A stretch of DNA of 64,000 nucleotides from Verrucomicrobiota bacterium (GTDB lineage Bacteria > Verrucomicrobiota > Verrucomicrobiia > Opitutales > Seribacteraceae). A model generated the notes under the pieces. That model had not been told where the DNA came from and did not search any database. It saw nothing but the letters and a program-made list of their open reading frames with translations. Position 1 is the stretch's first letter. Each line of letters starts with the position of its first letter. Positions 1 through 7,700 of this stretch are shown here, in pieces. The stretch spans positions 1 through 64,000 of the forward strand of contig JAQBYT010000011.1 of NCBI GenBank assembly GCA_027622665.1, written 5' to 3'. The position numbers and the translations under genes are program-made.

Positions 1-839
1 CCGGGGTCTGTAAAGTTTCCGTCTCCAGGGTCTGTAAAGTTACCATCACCGGGATCGGTAAAGTTACCATCGCCGGGGTCAGTAAAGTTTCCGTCTCCGG
101 GATCTGTAAAGTTACCATCGCCGGGATCGGTGAAGTTCCCATCGCCGGGGTCTGTAAAGTTTCCGTCTCCGGGGTCTGTAAAGTTGCCATCTCCAGGATC
201 AGTAAAGTTGCCATCTCCGGTGTCTGTAAAGTTACCATCACCGGGATCGGTAAAGTTACCATCACCGGGGTCAGTAAAGTTTCCATCTCCGGGGTCTGTA
301 AAGTTTCCGTCTCCGGGGTCTGTAAAGTTGCCGTCGCCGGGATCAGTAAAGTTACCATCACCGGGGTCTGTGAAGTTACCATCACCGGGATCGGTGAAGT
401 TGCCATCGCCGGGATCTGTAAAGTTACCATCGCCGGGGTCAGTAAAGTTTCCGTCTCCGGGGTCTGTAAAGTTCCCATCACCGGGGTCAGTAAAGTTCCC
501 ATCACCGGGGTCTGTAAAGTTTCCGTCTCCGGGATCTGTAAAGTTACCATCGCCGGGATCGGTGAAGTTCCCATCGCCGGGGTCTGTAAAGTTGCCATCT
601 CCAGGGTCTGTAAAGTTACCATCGCCGGGGTCTGTAAAGTTGCCATCACCGGGGTCTGTGAAGTTACCATCACCAGGATCTGTAAAGTTGCCATCTCCGG
701 GATCGGTAAAGTTTCCATCACCGGGGTCTGTAAAGTTACCGTCTCCGGGGTCAGTAAAGTTACCGTCTCCGGGATCCGTGTAATTCCCATCACCAGTATC
801 GGTGTAGTTCCCATCCCCCGATTCAGTAAAGTTTCCATC
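1..839 (-). repeat. 24-bp coding tandem repeat, 35 units in window, encoding DGN[F/Y]TDPG
   Basis: Asp codons start at 839, 815, ... 23 (period 24). Differences between units are mostly synonymous. The first units are DGNFTESG, DGNYTDTG and DGNYTDPG, and there is one internal DTG variant near 220. Confidence 0.97.
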
Positions 840-2435
840 GACCGTGGCATAGTCACTTACATCGAAAAGATATGTGGAATCGGCCCCAATGGCGCTGACG
901 GCAAGAAAGTCGCCCGAATGAGATATACTGAACCCGAAATTGTCACTCCCCTCACCGTTGGGGGCAACAATTCGCTCGAGGTAGGTAAAAGATCCGTTGT
1001 CCTCAAGGCGATAGAGGTAGGCGGCGCCGGCGTTGGCAACGTTCCCGGGATCAGCGCTTTTGGCGCCTACGACGAGAAGATTCGCCGAGAGAGAGACGGA
1101 ACCTCCAAAATGGTCGTTTGCCGCACCTCCACCGTGATTATTCTTCCAGAGGAAAGTTGCAGTACCGTTTTCCTCCAAACGGTATGTATAAACAGCTCCT
1201 TTGTCGGCAAGAACTCCGGAATCACCTCCAGAATCGGCATATTGGGCGCCGACGGCAAGAATGTTTCCCGATTGGGAGACGGAAATCCCGAATTGGTCCT
1301 CCGACGTGGCGTCGGGGGCGGTTACCTTGGTCAGGTAAGTGGCGCTGCCATTCTGCTCAAGCTTGTATAAATAAGCGGCGCCCGCTGCGGAAACGCCTCC
1401 GGGATCGGACTTGTGGGAACCGACGGCGAGAAGATTTCCCGATAGAGACAAGGAAGCGCCAAATAAATCGCTCGCCCCCCGGTCAGGAGCATAAACTTTG
1501 TCCAGAAAGGTGGCGGTGCCGTTCTGCTCGACACGATATAGATAGGCAGATCCGGAATCCGTTATGCCTCCCGGATCGGAAGTGTGAGCGCCTACGGCAA
1601 GGATATCACCCGATTGGGAAACGGATTTACCAAAATAATCCATCGGCCCACCGTCGGGAGCTATGACCTTGCTCAAATAGGTGGTGCTTCCGTTCTGCTC
1701 CACGCGATACAGGTAGACAGCTCCGGCATCGGAAAAGCCTCCGAGATCGGAACCAAAGGCACCAACTGCCAGAAGGTTTCCCGACTGGGAGATGGAAGAC
1801 CCCAAGAAGTCGTTGGCAGCAGCATCGGGAGCCGTCACCTTTGACAAGTAGGTAGCAGTGCCGTTCTGCTCAGCACGATAAAGATAGGCAGCTCCAACAC
1901 CGCCCGCTGCCCATGAAGCGCCTACGGCAAGAATATCGCCCGATTGGGAGACGGAACCCCCAAATTGCATGTTGGCCGTGCCGTCAGGAGCAGAAACCTG
2001 CGCCATAAAATGAGCAGACAAATTGACCGGGGTCAGGTTTTGGCTCGCGAGATAGCTGTCGATGGCATCCTGATTCGGTAAAACTTGTGGATCGACAATG
2101 TAGTACAACGCAGAAGACACCTCCCACTGCCCATCGAGAAACGTCGTTAGACTGAAACGAATTTCGTCTTGGCCACCGATTACTGCTACTTCCTCAAAAG
2201 TGTAATTACCCTCATAGAGGATATTTACGTTTTCCGCCATGAAGTTGATGTGGGTCGAGTTGAGCTCGAATACAGGAAGCTCGCCTCCGTCGCCCGACAA
2301 GTGCTCGGTTAGTGCAAAATTACTTAAGAGCAAAACGAACAGGAGATGCAACTTGATCCTACAGGAAAAAAACAGCGCCGACTTCGAAATCGTCCGAAAC
2401 ATATTCTTTAGAGAAGAAAAGAAAAATAAATGCAT
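1..2435 (-). CDS. Exported FG-GAP-repeat (beta-propeller) protein with a tandem DGNFTDPG sequon array; C-terminus lies beyond the left window edge
   Basis: Hand translation of the minus strand is open from ATG 2435 (alternative in-frame ATG 2402) to position 1. It shows a hydrophobic N-terminus (LHLLFVLLLSNFAL), seven blades like APDG..D.FG.SVSQSG.ILAVGA...GAAYLY, then the DGNFTDPG repeats. It is absent from the ORF track because there is no stop codon inside the window. Confidence 0.9.
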   Translation of the reverse strand, partial: MHLFFFSSLKNMFRTISKSALFFSCRIKLHLLFVLLLSNFALTEHLSGDGGELPVFELNSTHINFMAENVNILYEGNYTFEEVAVIGGQDEIRFSLTTFLDGQWEVSSALYYIVDPQVLPNQDAIDSYLASQNLTPVNLSAHFMAQVSAPDGTANMQFGGSVSQSGDILAVGASWAAGGVGAAYLYRAEQNGTATYLSKVTAPDAAANDFLGSSISQSGNLLAVGAFGSDLGGFSDAGAVYLYRVEQNGSTTYLSKVIAPDGGPMDYFGKSVSQSGDILAVGAHTSDPGGITDSGSAYLYRVEQNGTATFLDKVYAPDRGASDLFGASLSLSGNLLAVGSHKSDPGGVSAAGAAYLYKLEQNGSATYLTKVTAPDATSEDQFGISVSQSGNILAVGAQYADSGGDSGVLADKGAVYTYRLEENGTATFLWKNNHGGGAANDHFGGSVSLSANLLVVGAKSADPGNVANAGAAYLYRLEDNGSFTYLERIVAPNGEGSDNFGFSISHSGDFLAVSAIGADSTYLFDVSDYATVDGNFTESGDGNYTDTGDGNYTDPGDGNFTDPGDGNFTDPGDGNFTDPGDGNFTDPGDGNFTDPGDGNFTDPGDGNFTDPGDGNFTDPGDGNFTDPGDGNFTDPGDGNFTDPGDGNFTDPGDGNFTDPGDGNFTDPGDGNFTDPGDGNFTDPGDGNFTDPGDGNFTDPGDGNFTDPGDGNFTDPGDGNFTDPGDGNFTDPGDGNFTDTGDGNFTDPGDGNFTDPGDGNFTDPGDGNFTDPGDGNFTDPGDGNFTDPGDGNFTDPGDGNFTDPGDGNFTDP
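860..2010 (-). repeat. Seven FG-GAP-type repeats (~50-60 aa each)
   Basis: Recurrent FG(G/K/A/I/F)S(V/I/L)S.SG.(I/L)LAVG and GA(A/V)YLYR.E.NG motifs on the minus strand. Confidence 0.85.
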
Positions 2436-2659
2436 TATCTATAGGCGAATCACTTGATGAAAGTTGACAACATTACTATTAGCGAGAAAAGGGGAAATCT
2501 TGCATATTTTCAAAAGAAAAAACAAACCCGGAGACTGAATCACTCGCAAGCCGTTGACCGGAGGCAAGTTGGGAAAGTGTAAACATTTCACTTGCGAAGA
2601 AGATTATTGGAACAATAAAAAAGGGACACGGATGAACAGAATATGAGTGCCTGGTGGAC

Positions 2660-5600
2660 TTAACGTAAGACCCGATACACCTTGCCCCATGGCGAAAGGT
2701 AGACCGGAGCAAATAGTTCAGGGTCAAGGTTCTCCATAAGAAATCCTTGTACGAGCAAGGATTGGAATACCTCGTTGGCCATGAAGAACCATGCGGGGAT
2801 TACTTGGTAACCACGCGAGGGTATCTGGATAACCTCTCCCTCGGCGAGCATTTCGCCATCCTCTCGACCCGATGTTTGGGCCAAAGCCAAGGGATTGGCG
2901 CCGTGGCTGGCCGCGATTTGAGCGATGGTCTTGCCTCCGGCCGGGACAGTATAAGTTCGACCACCGAGGAAAGCCGGGAGGTTGCTTTGGATTAAGTGAT
3001 ACTTGGCGCCTTCCACGGGTTTGGGAGGGATTTTCATGAGTTTTCCGGTTTTTGCATCGTGCATGGAGCGATGGAAGGAAAATTTGACGGGTTTAGCCAA
3101 GCCGGGCAATTTGGCCAATCCGGTACCGACGTCAGCCTCGATCTTATAGCCACCACGCATGTTGAGTGTGATTTTGCTACCGGAGGAGGTAACCCAGTCG
3201 GCCTGTGTCATATAGGATTGGCGCTTGAGGTCGGCGGCGGATGCAAAGGAGGGATGGGAATAGGCCTCGGGATCGAAGCGGTCGAGGAGGAATCGCTTGG
3301 CCAAGGTGGAGCGATAGGCATCCGCGGACAAAATGATGAGATCGCGCTGCTCGGGAAGGTAGAGCAAGCGCTGGGGAGAAGACCTTTCGGGGTTTGATGG
3401 TATTCGCAATCCGTCGACTTCGAGGGCGTCGACGACCTTGGCGGGCTCTCCAGGGGCACCTACAATCGACATCGACCCATACGGGGCGACGCCCTTTTGG
3501 TCCTTCGTTCGCAACTTCCCTCGCCGATCGAGACGAAAACCGTTGGCGAAAACAAGGGAATTGCCCTCGCGGCGGGCGTTTCTCAGGATCGACATGGCTT
3601 TGGGCACACGCCCCCCGGGGTATTCACCCAGTTGCTTGTCCATGAACAAGTTTCTAGAACTGAAGCCAATGATGGTGGGAAAGATGCGCATGATTTCGTA
3701 GGGGAAGAAGAGATAGACTTCCCTCGACTTGGTGGGTGGAATATAGTCGGGACTAGCAAGATCGGCCAAGAGTCCCGGATAAAAGCGCAAGTCGGGTGAC
3801 CCGTCCTGAAAGAGAGCTTGAACGGCTGTTGTGTATTCGGATGAGTGTGCCTTGGTGTCGTCGTGAAGGTCCATGTAGGTCTCCGCCTTCAATCGACAAA
3901 GGTTGGCCGCTTTCAGCTGAGAGGTGGAACGCAGGATTTCAGAGGTGAGGAAATTGTCCAAAGTCTGGTGAGCGGGGGAGGTGAAGGTGCGGGCGCCCCC
4001 GTAAAACCAACTGCCTGAACCATAGTCCCACCAAGTAAGGACGAAATCGTCGGGCGCAGCGTCACGATTGAGGGCTTCCAATGCCTCGATGGTCTTACCG
4101 GGATAGACGACGTGTGAATTGTAATTGCGAGCGTGCTGTAAGTTGGGACGAACCAGAAAAACGACGAAACCGCCTACTATGGCCATGGAGAGGATTTTTG
4201 CAGGCCAAGCCGAGGCGGTAAGAAGACTGCTCTTGGGCAAACCCGACAGAGCGGCCCGGACAAGGAACCAGACCACTGCCATAAGGAGAAAAGTAACGCC
4301 CAAGGCGGCGTAGTTGCCAACATGCACGGTGAAGCGAAGACCGACTTTGCCCTCGAAACAATAATAGGCGATGGCGAGGAAGGGGACGGCCATGCAAAAC
4401 TCCCATCTCCAAAAGATAAGGAGTCCCAAACCGAACAGACCGAAGAAGGCAGTGGGAAGAATGGTGGCGTCTTTTCGCTTGGATGCGGGAAGACATCTGG
4501 CGCAAGAACAGGATGGGGTATCGGCGAGAATGCGGTTACGGACAGTCTCGGGAGGAATTTTTCCGGCTTCCCGAATGGTTTGCTTAACGTTGCGGAAATT
4601 CAGTTGGTAATTGGAAGATACCGAAGAAGCGGAAGACACTTTCCCAGGTCCTTGAAGGTAGCTTTCCAGCTTCCCCGTAATTTTTCCGTAAACGCCCCCG
4701 TAAATACCAACGAGCAAGAGGGCGACAGATGCGAATACGACCAAATATTGCGAACGGCGAACGGTGAACGAAGGGGATCGTCGGTCCTGCTCTTTGGCTG
4801 AACTTTTGCCAAGAGACCGGGAGTTAATCTCTGTTTGCGGAACGGTCTCCATAAAACGAAAAACAACAAAAAGAACAGGCAGAAGCAGCAAACCCAACCA
4901 AAAGCGTGTGGGACTCGCCTCGATCATACTGCCTAGGGACCACGCCTCGGCATACATTACCCAAGACAACAGAATGGCGGTTTGACAAGCGAAGCTCAGG
5001 GATGGTGAACGCCCAAAGCTCTTACCCTTTCGATCGATGAGATATTCCAAGACCGACAAGCCGAAACGGTAACCGATGAAAGCTAAGCACATGGTACAGG
5101 TAATGGCCTGACCGGAACCATAAATAAACCTGAATAGATAAAGAGTAACGGCACCTGCCAAAGCAAATTTAAGAGACTCTCTTCTAGAGGCCGCCAGCAG
5201 GAAGAATATCGCTAGAGCCGGCACCGTGATGGAAAACATATCGGTGTCGTAATAACCCGCCAGAGTACGGTTGTAATAACTGTGGGTTACGCCGGCAAGG
5301 CAGGCGGCAAAAAAGCCCCAGAGGGTGGAACCGTATAGGCGACCGATAAGCACGATCGGAATGCAAACGAAACCGGCTACCCACACCGGCAACCACAGCA
5401 GCAATTGCTCAATGGTGAGTGAGGGGAAGAGCTTAAGCAAAGCATAGGGCAAAGCCGTGATTGCTCCCGAGAAAATAGCGGACGGGAGGAGGTTGTTGTT
5501 TTGATGCAAACCCAGATGAGCTTTTTGCAAGATGCTGCCGAAGTAGAAACTGTCGTGCGTGTTGGCCACGGCCACGCCGTCCTTGACCATTTGAGGACGA

Positions 5601-5920
5601 ATTAACTGGGTGTCCCCGTTCGCGTCGACATAAGTGGCCTGGGCAAACTCGATCCACTCCAGTCGTGCATAAAAACTAAGCAAATACGCAAGAAGGATTA
5701 AGATGATGGCGACCGACCAGTGAGTACGATCCTTAGGTAGCTCGATAAGACCGGGGAAAAAACCACGACCACGAACCATCTCGGCGAGGCCTTTGGCGCT
5801 GAAGAATTTCCCGAGCGATTTCCTGATGGACAGATTCAACTCTTCCGAATGCGAGATGGGTACCGCACCAGAATCGGAGGGTTGACCGGAATCATCAACG
5901 GGGTTTTCGTCTTCCTTCAT
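2660..5920 (-). CDS. pglB: Oligosaccharyltransferase, STT3/PglB family, with an extended C-terminus containing a LysM-like domain
   Basis: Multi-TM N-terminal half. Motifs THDSFY, SYYNRTLAGYYDTDM, TIRE, GLRFT, WWDYG (4019-4033) and IMRI, plus a C-terminal KVYRV, all in PglB order. Confidence 0.93.
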   Translation of the reverse strand: MKEDENPVDDSGQPSDSGAVPISHSEELNLSIRKSLGKFFSAKGLAEMVRGRGFFPGLIELPKDRTHWSVAIILILLAYLLSFYARLEWIEFAQATYVDANGDTQLIRPQMVKDGVAVANTHDSFYFGSILQKAHLGLHQNNNLLPSAIFSGAITALPYALLKLFPSLTIEQLLLWLPVWVAGFVCIPIVLIGRLYGSTLWGFFAACLAGVTHSYYNRTLAGYYDTDMFSITVPALAIFFLLAASRRESLKFALAGAVTLYLFRFIYGSGQAITCTMCLAFIGYRFGLSVLEYLIDRKGKSFGRSPSLSFACQTAILLSWVMYAEAWSLGSMIEASPTRFWLGLLLLPVLFVVFRFMETVPQTEINSRSLGKSSAKEQDRRSPSFTVRRSQYLVVFASVALLLVGIYGGVYGKITGKLESYLQGPGKVSSASSVSSNYQLNFRNVKQTIREAGKIPPETVRNRILADTPSCSCARCLPASKRKDATILPTAFFGLFGLGLLIFWRWEFCMAVPFLAIAYYCFEGKVGLRFTVHVGNYAALGVTFLLMAVVWFLVRAALSGLPKSSLLTASAWPAKILSMAIVGGFVVFLVRPNLQHARNYNSHVVYPGKTIEALEALNRDAAPDDFVLTWWDYGSGSWFYGGARTFTSPAHQTLDNFLTSEILRSTSQLKAANLCRLKAETYMDLHDDTKAHSSEYTTAVQALFQDGSPDLRFYPGLLADLASPDYIPPTKSREVYLFFPYEIMRIFPTIIGFSSRNLFMDKQLGEYPGGRVPKAMSILRNARREGNSLVFANGFRLDRRGKLRTKDQKGVAPYGSMSIVGAPGEPAKVVDALEVDGLRIPSNPERSSPQRLLYLPEQRDLIILSADAYRSTLAKRFLLDRFDPEAYSHPSFASAADLKRQSYMTQADWVTSSGSKITLNMRGGYKIEADVGTGLAKLPGLAKPVKFSFHRSMHDAKTGKLMKIPPKPVEGAKYHLIQSNLPAFLGGRTYTVPAGGKTIAQIAASHGANPLALAQTSGREDGEMLAEGEVIQIPSRGYQVIPAWFFMANEVFQSLLVQGFLMENLDPELFAPVYLSPWGKVYRVLR

Positions 5921-5978: not shown

Positions 5979-7700
5979 TCAGCGAAACTTTAGCTGAAGG
6001 GTTTTCAGGCTCTTGCCGAGGCTTGCCAGAAGGTCGGTGGTCTTGGGGGCGTCAAACGAGTTGCCCAGGGGAGTACGGGTGCCCATGCGGATGCGAGCCC
6101 CGAGGTTTTGTATATGGAAGGCGTAGTCGTTGTTTACCATAATGCCCAAAACTTCACCGCTCTTGGCAAAGACGAGGTCACCTTTGCCCGGATCGAACTT
6201 CCCGGTAATGAAGGTAAAGCGGTTGTGTTTCACGCGAATGTAACGGCCGTCGACGCCATCGCGGATAAAATCGGTTTGCCCAAAGTTCGAGTGACCGACG
6301 TCTACAACCACGGCTTCCGAAAACATGTGCGGATCCTTTGGGGTGCGAAAAAGCTTAACGTCGTTCTTTTCCTCCAGTTCGCGAGGGTTGACGTAGACGG
6401 GAACAATCAGCATGCGGGGATCGTCCATGAAGGCGACTTCGTTAACGAGGATAGGTGTCTTGATACCTTTTCCGGTGATAGTTCCACTGACCTCGATGAG
6501 CTTGCGGTGAAAAGGCTCGAGACGGAAAGGACTGTCTTTGGCATGAACTAAAGTATAGGCAAAGGTTCCATCGACGAGGATAATGGTTTCAGTTTCGTAA
6601 GTGTCCACCTTTTCGGCTCCGAGAAAGCCACCCTTGTGACGAAAAGTCATGGTGAGCTTTACTTTGTTTGCCGCATAATTCGAATAAATTTCGTTGAGTG
6701 ACTTGGCTTGACGCTCGCTGATCTGGTTTAGTGCTTCCTTTTGCTCGGCTACTGCCTCGGTGGTGGTTTCGGCGATATTGGCCACTTGCTGGGTGACGCG
6801 CTGAACCTTATCCCCTACCCCCGCCACTTCCTCACTGACGTTGGTGACGGTAGCTTTTACCCCGGCGACCTCTTGACTCACATTGGAAACGGAAGCCTTC
6901 ACACCGGCCACCTCATCGGTGACGGTGCTGATCTTCTCCCCTACCCCGGCGAGGGAAGTCCCTACATTCTTTAGGCCGGTGCCCACATCCTTGAGACCGG
7001 AATTAAGGGCATCGATGCGCTCGTCGATTGCTGCAGTGGACTTAACTAGTTCGTCCCCTCGCTTTCGTTCGCTGGCAAGAGCCTCCTCAGCCTTTGCCGC
7101 GGCTTCAGTCTTGGCTTTGGCCTGCTCCTCGGCCTTGGCTAAATCGACCCTAGCCGTAGCCACTTCGGATTCGGTGCGCGCTTTTTGAGCAGTCAATTCT
7201 TCGGCCTGCTTCTTAGCATCTATGAGGTTTGATGCAAGTAGTTCGACTTCCTTTTGGGCCGCAGCGTTACGGGCAAGAAGTTCTTCGCGCTTACGCTCGA
7301 TATCTTCATTGGCCTGTTCTAGTTTGGCGGCAGCTTTTGCCGCTTCGTCAATCGCCACTTTGTTGTCGGAGATGACGTCGTCCTTTTGGGCAATTAAATT
7401 CTCCTTCTGCTCCAATTCTAGACGGCGTTCCTCGATTTCTTCCTCGAGACGAAGTTTTTCAGTCACAAGATCGTCTTTGTCTCGCAGAAGGTTCGCTTCG
7501 AGAGTTTCGTTGGTAGCCTCAAGTTCAGCCACGACGTCGTCGTAGTTTTCGCCGTCCGAAATTCTTTCCATTACCTCCTTGGAAACAACTTTTTCCTGAT
7601 TTCGAGCTATATCGGCATCCGCCGGCACATCGAAACGCGCCAAGGAGAGTATGCTCAGCAACAGAAAATCGCAGACAACAAGCAGTAAACTATGGTTCAT
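5979..7700 (-). CDS. Membrane-anchored coiled-coil protein: MotB/TolR/ExbD-like N-terminal TM with Asp, long coiled coil, degenerate trypsin-like C-terminal domain
   Basis: N-terminal LLLVVCDFLLLSIL; E/K/A-rich heptads; C-terminal DPGKGDLVFAKSGEVLGI resembles the trypsin-like PGNSGGPL...GEVIGI motif but lacks the Ser. Overlaps the upstream gene by 11 nt. Confidence 0.6.
   Translation of the reverse strand: MNHSLLLVVCDFLLLSILSLARFDVPADADIARNQEKVVSKEVMERISDGENYDDVVAELEATNETLEANLLRDKDDLVTEKLRLEEEIEERRLELEQKENLIAQKDDVISDNKVAIDEAAKAAAKLEQANEDIERKREELLARNAAAQKEVELLASNLIDAKKQAEELTAQKARTESEVATARVDLAKAEEQAKAKTEAAAKAEEALASERKRGDELVKSTAAIDERIDALNSGLKDVGTGLKNVGTSLAGVGEKISTVTDEVAGVKASVSNVSQEVAGVKATVTNVSEEVAGVGDKVQRVTQQVANIAETTTEAVAEQKEALNQISERQAKSLNEIYSNYAANKVKLTMTFRHKGGFLGAEKVDTYETETIILVDGTFAYTLVHAKDSPFRLEPFHRKLIEVSGTITGKGIKTPILVNEVAFMDDPRMLIVPVYVNPRELEEKNDVKLFRTPKDPHMFSEAVVVDVGHSNFGQTDFIRDGVDGRYIRVKHNRFTFITGKFDPGKGDLVFAKSGEVLGIMVNNDYAFHIQNLGARIRMGTRTPLGNSFDAPKTTDLLASLGKSLKTLQLKFR

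Follow-up and report, generated by a model that had tools for sequence, protein, structure and literature searches.

At the very start of a contig from a marine Verrucomicrobiota bacterium of the order Opitutales, the minus strand encodes a tandem array of an eight-residue peptide in which every unit carries the acceptor sequon of PglB-type oligosaccharyltransferases (OSTs), and the gene directly upstream appears to encode an enzyme of this type. The reading that we favour, with a probability of roughly 0.6, is that at least 47 such sequons make up a stalk, predicted to be flexible and dense in N-linked glycans, of a protein that is likely exported, and that the neighbouring PglB-type enzyme loads them. 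By "the window" we mean the whole stretch analysed, 64,000 nt of GenBank assembly GCA_027622665.1 (genome G000), whose position 1 is the start of contig C43. The features to which the argument refers are the following.

3 to 839, minus strand: DGN(F/Y)TDPG tandem array, 35 units with one D-X-N-X-T sequon apiece, truncated at the contig start.
3 to 2435, minus strand: open reading frame, 5′ part (811 aa) of the array-bearing putative surface-protein gene.
846 to 2000, minus strand: FG-GAP beta-propeller region (Pfam PF14312, seven stretches, E 2.9e-71).
2304 to 2435, minus strand: likely signal peptide by hydropathy, with a basic start and a hydrophobic stretch at residues ~28–42.
2660 to 5920, minus strand: putative PglB-type OST, 1086 aa (Pfam PF02516 and PF21436; Campylobacter lari PglB, E 6e-43; fold match 5ogl, E 1.4e-22).
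4016 to 4033, minus strand: WWDYG motif; the next residue is Ser (S635), at the position of Tyr468 in C. lari PglB (alignment).
4532 to 4579, minus strand: TIRE motif (T448, E451) and R463, equivalents of C. lari PglB T316, E319 and R331 (alignments).
G000:C57:21098–22582: 3′ part of the gene (494 aa: 12 units, an acidic domain, an FN3-like domain and a Trp-rich C-terminal domain).

The array is real and coding. It runs head to tail in 24-bp units from 839 down to 3, with 34 complete units and one cut by the contig start; Tandem Repeats Finder reports a period of 24, 32.2 copies and a score of 972. The sequon reads DGNFT in 33 units and DGNYT in two, and 27 of the 34 complete units are distinct as DNA. 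At the end of contig C57 (from 22582 downward) there are 12 further sequon units, 11 with DGNFT and one with DGNIT, in a 494-aa open frame. The ends of C43 and C57 share no exact overlap, but gene order in relatives suggests that the two halves belong to one gene, which puts the copy number at 35 plus 12, that is, at least 47. The full protein would then measure at least 1300 aa and contain at least 55 extended sequons, the 811-aa N-terminal part having eight outside the array. DGNFTDPG is read in the coding frame because this minus-strand frame is continuous with the open reading frame carrying the seven FG-GAP_2 matches, whereas the antisense frame sharing its third positions varies freely between Leu (19 of 33 units) and Phe (12 of 33) and contains a stop. 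The original prediction described units that differ at many third codon positions around a constant peptide, and a codon alignment bears this out: for 41 core units (both contig halves minus the three first and two last units), uncorrected pairwise divergence is 0.63 at synonymous sites (pS) versus 0.005 at nonsynonymous sites (pN). The variants it named are also present, with Tyr at position 4 in units 2 and 3, ESG in unit 1 and DTG in units 2 and 26, all leaving D1, N3 and T5 unchanged. The DGNFT unit fits D/E-X-N-X-S/T, and Pro, as predicted, lies outside the sequon, at +4 from Asn. At the DNA level, an exact two-unit pattern of the array had one match in genome contigs and none in metagenome contigs (a looser pattern had two), and it occurred in two of nine genomes of the genus.

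The domain order of the protein is a hydrophobic N-terminus, a short domain, the propeller, the array, the acidic domain, the FN3-like domain and a Trp-rich beta-hairpin domain. Either M1 or M12 could be the start, and homologues close the N-terminal hydrophobic stretch with AFA or SVA before Gln; we regard the product as a likely exported surface protein. A search of positions 2300–2800 for promoter- or terminator-like sites found none. Six propeller blade turns (at residues 189, 246, 303, 360, 421 and 478) each carry E-X-N-G-S/T. This wording is found in 34 of 44 FG-GAP_2 turns of eight Trp-domain proteins versus 77 of 1269 turns in 112 others, where several of the 77 sit in few proteins that are possibly cut family members. 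In the 494-aa structural model, the 12 array units have a pLDDT of ~33 and no predicted secondary structure; the alignment was shallow, so the low pLDDT is no proof of disorder, and we describe the stalk as predicted to be flexible. The FN3-like domain gave Z-scores of ~10 to many FN3 chains and filled the fold searches, which barely sampled the fold of the Trp-rich domain, modelled at a pLDDT of 91–96. For the latter, there was no Pfam match of note, and the Atlas returned unnamed Verrucomicrobiota clusters only. A Cornifin match in Pfam was set aside as compositional. One query for the C-terminal half had no match in G003, G004 or G006.

The Trp-rich C-terminal beta-hairpin domain (L001:15102–15398, minus strand) recurs in 34 open reading frames of G000, mostly at the C-terminus. 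It was detected in all 24 genomes of the family and in four of 16 genomes from other families, and it is a candidate anchor or export signal of large surface proteins.

Directly upstream of the array gene, on the same strand, lies the only STT3 match of the genome. Both Pfam domains score above their cut-offs (PF02516, 71.9 bits; PF21436, 74.7 bits), and the best fold matches are PglB structures; against the Campylobacter PglB equivalog NF050801 the protein scores 196.6 bits, below the cut-off of 1300. Residues D123, R218, D225, D227 and R529 align with C. lari D56, R147, D154, D156 and R375, and WWD630–632 and I746 with WWD463–465 and I572, the I572-type motif being IxxI rather than MxxI. Equivalents of the catalytic and metal-binding residues D56, R147, D154, D156, E319 and R375 are invariant in all 12 family enzymes aligned. 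R463 is spaced from T448 and E451 exactly as R331 is from T316 and E319; this equivalence comes from a wider profile that bridges the two enzymes, the segment around R331 being absent from direct HMMER alignments. The roles of the C. lari residues, including that of R331 with Asp or Glu at −2, that of WWD and I572 with Ser or Thr at +2 and that of Tyr468, are described in PMC7226087, and that of R331 also in PMC4894442. By its sequence, 2660–5920 encodes a predicted PglB-type OST that keeps the catalytic and −2-reading residues. According to PMC4894442, an Arg equivalent to R331 does not by itself fix the −2 specificity, and therefore the genomic −2 bias described below is the better evidence. 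The equivalent of Tyr468 is absent: all 12 family enzymes aligned have Ser (WWDYGS for WWDYGY), which may mean a different reducing-end sugar. Searches recovered the OST from 22 of the 24 genomes of the family and from no genome among 16 that belong to other families of the order; its profile matches G000 and G022, but not G030 or G040.

Three further observations concern the enzyme. Just after the R331 equivalent, 11 of 12 family enzymes have a CxCxxC motif (residues 471–476, window ~4490–4510, minus strand), possibly a metal site or disulfides in the loop closing over the acceptor. The C-terminal extension (residues ~985–1035, window 2660–3100, minus strand) includes a LysM-like segment, absent in L023 and suggested by weak fold matches to the CVNH-LysM entries 5c8o and 2l9y (E 0.1 and 0.34). 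The pglB match in G024 (L016, G024:C8:131332–137457) has three internal stops and represents either a frameshifted assembly or a broken gene.

The extended sequon was also counted across the genome. In a crude set of 3100 non-overlapping open reading frames of G000, and leaving the array protein aside, 33 Trp-domain proteins contain 434 D/E-X-N-X-S/T sequons versus 52.0 in shuffled sequences, an 8-fold excess, while N-X-S/T without the acidic residue stands at 0.96-fold. For 243 proteins with P-loop or Rossmann motifs the extended sequons number 46 versus 45.2 in shuffles. Ser or Thr follows D/E-X-N in 439 of 678 cases, and among these 439 Pro occurs three times at −1 and twice at +1. At −2, Asp is enriched 5.1-fold and Glu 3.2-fold, and Thr exceeds Ser at +2. 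The control, 20 Trp-domain proteins from four genomes of other families without an OST match, had five sequons versus 9.2; it consisted of the longest Trp-domain frames (16 of the 27 G030 matches, of which two are truncated, one of two in G028, two of four in G037 and one of two in G040). In 19 Trp-domain proteins of OST-bearing family genomes, the observed and shuffled counts by genus are 75 and 11.3, 200 and 21.5, 62 and 7.5, and 17 and 1.6, a 6.6- to 10.9-fold enrichment in long frames (20 hand-picked among the matches listed, 150 of 497); since these proteins are kin, the counts are not independent. There are discordant cases: G016, 91% complete, has 12 extended sequons versus 1.3, yet no OST was found in its assembly, and the 976-aa protein at L120 has no extended sequon. 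Four other periodic runs in G000 (periods 14–19; four of 28 other runs) contain four to eight sequons each. Statistically, the Trp-domain proteins of the lineage are enriched for exactly D/E-X-N-X-S/T, and the extended sequon has been selected in these surface proteins.

Many extended sequons per protein also occur in giant open reading frames of 13428, 8761 and 4219 aa (G000:C2:14216–54499, C34:8693–34975 and C3:2–12658), with 71, 72 and 80, respectively.

Whether the sequon is the conserved part of the array unit is a separate matter. The original prediction held that it is the target of selection, and this stands in part. It is supported by the PglB-type neighbour, by the enrichment in the lineage and by related arrays. 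When the 8-mer arrays of G000, L133 and G005 (three lineages) are pooled, all 61 units keep D1 and N3, 58 keep T5, and a single one of the 20 variant residue types breaks the sequon (P ~0.002 at a breaking chance of 0.345, a rough figure as the units are not independent). L133, a diverged allele lacking the propeller and with 82% DNA identity in pglB, keeps eight of eight units intact, varying only at X+1 (Tyr/His) and in the spacer (Asp/Gly/Glu). The core units speak against a special status of the sequon: they show just two residue changes, both at Pro7, so that the probability of sparing the sequon by chance is 0.43; G2, F4, D6 and G8 are as invariant as D, N and T, and most variants fall in edge units. 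The whole repeat peptide is constrained for a reason that the sequon alone does not explain. In a rival reading, unlikely in our estimate, the array is an acidic, Gly-rich and possibly Ca2+-binding spacer on which selection acts through its charge, its flexibility and an aromatic side chain, with the sequon incidental, unoccupied or unimportant. The composition of the array (25% Asp plus Glu, neither Lys nor Arg) agrees with it, and so do several homologues. In G005, T5 is replaced by Ala in three of seven units, leaving four sequons; in G006 a single DGNFTDSG precedes DGGYQSD 7-mers, in which 14 of 16 units are distinct as DNA and no amino acid changes. Asn-free 7-mers of this type occupy the same place in G006, P0002, P0003 and P0040, P0045 has the same type, and the stalk of G004 starts with DGNYQ. 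What all repeat types have in common is D/E-G-x-aromatic, not N-x-T. By the comparison of homologues that it set as its own test, the original prediction is partly refuted. Since the Asn-free repeat of G006 is equally scrambled, synonymous scrambling does not point to the sequon; nor was the suggestion that scrambling stabilises the array borne out, as the G003 allele already diverges at unit 4. What tells against a mere spacer, besides the variants that spare the sequon, is that, with the 8-fold enrichment in other surface proteins, one would expect modification of a D-X-N-X-T peptide that is exported and flexible. As for calcium, the RTX nonapeptide has a period of 9 and the pattern GGxGxDxUx; the unit, with a period of 8 and Phe at the Ca2+-binding Asp position, is unlike it, Pfam matches include no calcium-binding repeat, and membership in that family was rejected. 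Taken together, the alleles show that the stalk can do without the sequon and that synonymous scrambling is general to these repeats, and they suggest that a unit present once or a few times elsewhere was amplified into the sequon array in this lineage. Acidic His- or Tyr-rich 7-mers also occur in other Trp-domain proteins, DEGYHTG at L086 (G005:C34) and DGGYQTP at L120 (G021:C84), as members of a wider family of repeats.

The position of the gene bears on a second rival. In 13 relatives, a giant FecR-like gene directly follows pglB; it also follows the C57 half in G000 (relatives were recognised by N-terminal sequence, the G000 copy by Pfam FecR). Four relatives have a gene inserted between the two, as in G000, and in five the contig ends first. 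Among the 18 relatives with a visible 3′ side of pglB, 13 have nothing in the slot; it is filled in four relatives and in G000. The filled slots differ in stalk and in head, which is a propeller, absent in L133 and another domain in G005. Moreover, 994–3093, which takes in the array gene and the 3′-terminal part of pglB, is 99–100% identical in 300-nt bins to L032 (possibly identical to one of the genomes used, and not counted separately), versus 73–88% for most of pglB, with the identity step inside the pglB 3′ end. This points to a recent recombinational exchange of the slot. Both the patchy occupancy and the mosaic identity favour a second rival, that the slot is a variable coat cassette in which the array is glycosylated but serves surface variation or shielding against phage or grazers rather than the spacing of an adhesin head, with alleles with and without glycan swapped between lineages. 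We find this quite improbable as a replacement for the stalk reading: bins of 96–98% identity to L032 also lie upstream, so that exchange may be general between close species, and spacing and shielding are compatible with each other. That the array, or its length or unit order, is an assembly artefact we consider very improbable indeed. Such an artefact could account for both halves stopping at contig ends without overlap, for the lack of any read or contig spanning the array, and for the other path through the units taken by the G003 contig end. This allele is identical in 572 of 579 codons elsewhere, leaves the G000 unit order at unit 4 and matches C57 units exactly over its last 56 nt; this reflects either a shorter allele produced by recombination or an assembly error at the end of the contig. 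An artefact would not account, however, for contigs from public runs of three studies that run from the flank into units 1–9 near-identically and match short inner pieces exactly, although none spans the array and one run is possibly the source sample. Matches over 645–3200 have one and two differences in X3 and X7, respectively, and a match over 721–3070 has one in X1. Nor would it explain related arrays in G003, G005 and L132/L133, or units that differ by ~16% at all lags. Contig depth summed over the array was set aside as a measure of copy number, and RNA run X15, with two short contigs at depth 2–3, was discarded as evidence of transcription.

Other genes around the slot and the possible source of the glycan can be described briefly. 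The FecR-like gene (L001:8467–14916, minus strand) encodes a 2150-aa Ala-rich protein with an N-terminal FecR-like domain and is a conserved downstream partner of pglB; a putative beta-barrel gene and a TPR gene come after it. A coiled-coil gene (window 5979–7700, minus strand), with no specific family match, lies directly upstream of pglB in the family loci visible there. Next to pglB, then, stand the coiled-coil gene, the array gene and one gene of no recognised kind, rather than the donor-synthesis and flippase genes that mark a pgl-type locus. PglC-, PglE-, PglF- and ABC-flippase-like Pfam matches occur instead in a sugar-biosynthesis cluster on C13 (L129/L130, G000:C13:8000–47000), which has two Bac_transf genes, a dehydratase, an aminotransferase, GT4s and an ABC transporter, and which could equally serve LPS or capsule.

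In the stalk reading that we prefer, the signal peptide would take the array protein across the inner membrane, where PglB would move a lipid-linked glycan onto many sites of the unfolded repeat, which offers one per eight residues. The glycans, together with the 25% acidic residues, would stiffen a stalk of at least 376 residues and a contour length of ~130 nm or more. This stalk would keep the FG-GAP propeller at a distance from the likely anchor, formed by the FN3-like and Trp-rich domains at the C-terminus. The array would have arisen by amplification of one sequon-bearing 8-mer, single in other alleles, within the variable slot between pglB and the FecR-like giant gene. A more far-reaching version is speculative and, to us, doubtful: the slot could be a swappable cassette in a marine Opitutales family with N-glycosylation of mucin-like density, its stalk alternating between a glycan bottle-brush of 8-mers and acidic 7-mers that bear no glycan. 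Recombination anchored in pglB would pass the cassette from species to species, and the OST with Ser for Tyr468 could load a reducing sugar unlike that of Campylobacter onto dozens of sites eight residues apart.

The closest known system is the Pgl system of C. jejuni and C. lari, which has the same fold, the same catalytic residues including the R331 equivalent, and the same acceptor rule, D/E-X-N-X-S/T with X not Pro, as stated in PMC4894442 and PMC12229607. In contrast to that system, the host here belongs to another phylum, pglB lies outside a pgl cluster and beside a substrate candidate, single G000 proteins have 50–80 sequons, and one candidate substrate has them in a tandem array. Unlike C. 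lari PglB, the enzyme is 1086 aa long, extends far at its C-terminus, has CxCxxC inserted behind R463 and reads WWDYGS instead of WWDYGY. Four tandem DQNAT motifs have been used on vaccine carriers (10.1101/2022.10.31.514630). Like those unstructured tags, the array places PglB sequons head to tail, in a segment predicted to be flexible; unlike them, it is natural, has at least 47 copies at eight-residue spacing and is internal to the protein. The proposed stalk would also resemble mucin-like and serine-rich-repeat stalks, which likewise have a long low-complexity repeat of variable length between head and anchor, likely stiffened by glycans. Those stalks are O-glycosylated on Ser or Thr, whereas the array would receive its glycans on Asn, by en bloc transfer from an OST. 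The protein resembles FG-GAP_2 (PF14312) surface proteins in its seven Pfam stretches and differs from them in the E-X-N-G-S/T blade turns. In the literature searched, largely outside the subscription journals, we found no description of PglB or N-glycosylation in Opitutales or Verrucomicrobiota, no natural tandem sequon array (the engineered four-copy DQNAT tag was the one such array met), and no per-protein counts of sequon sites. En bloc bacterial N-glycosylation has been characterised in relatives of Campylobacter and in Desulfobacterota (PMC4894442, PMC12229607).

At least 47 natural sequons at eight-residue spacing lend themselves to a test of the glycan density that a single-subunit OST can reach on one chain, a question that limits glycoconjugate tags (four copies in 10.1101/2022.10.31.514630). 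The PglB-type enzyme also adds a candidate to the tools of glycoengineering, and the sequon-bearing and sequon-free alleles provide a natural control for the role of the glycan. If the proposed reading is true, a marine Verrucomicrobiota family with a conserved PglB would extend N-glycosylation to another phylum and to another scale, that of dozens of sites per protein.
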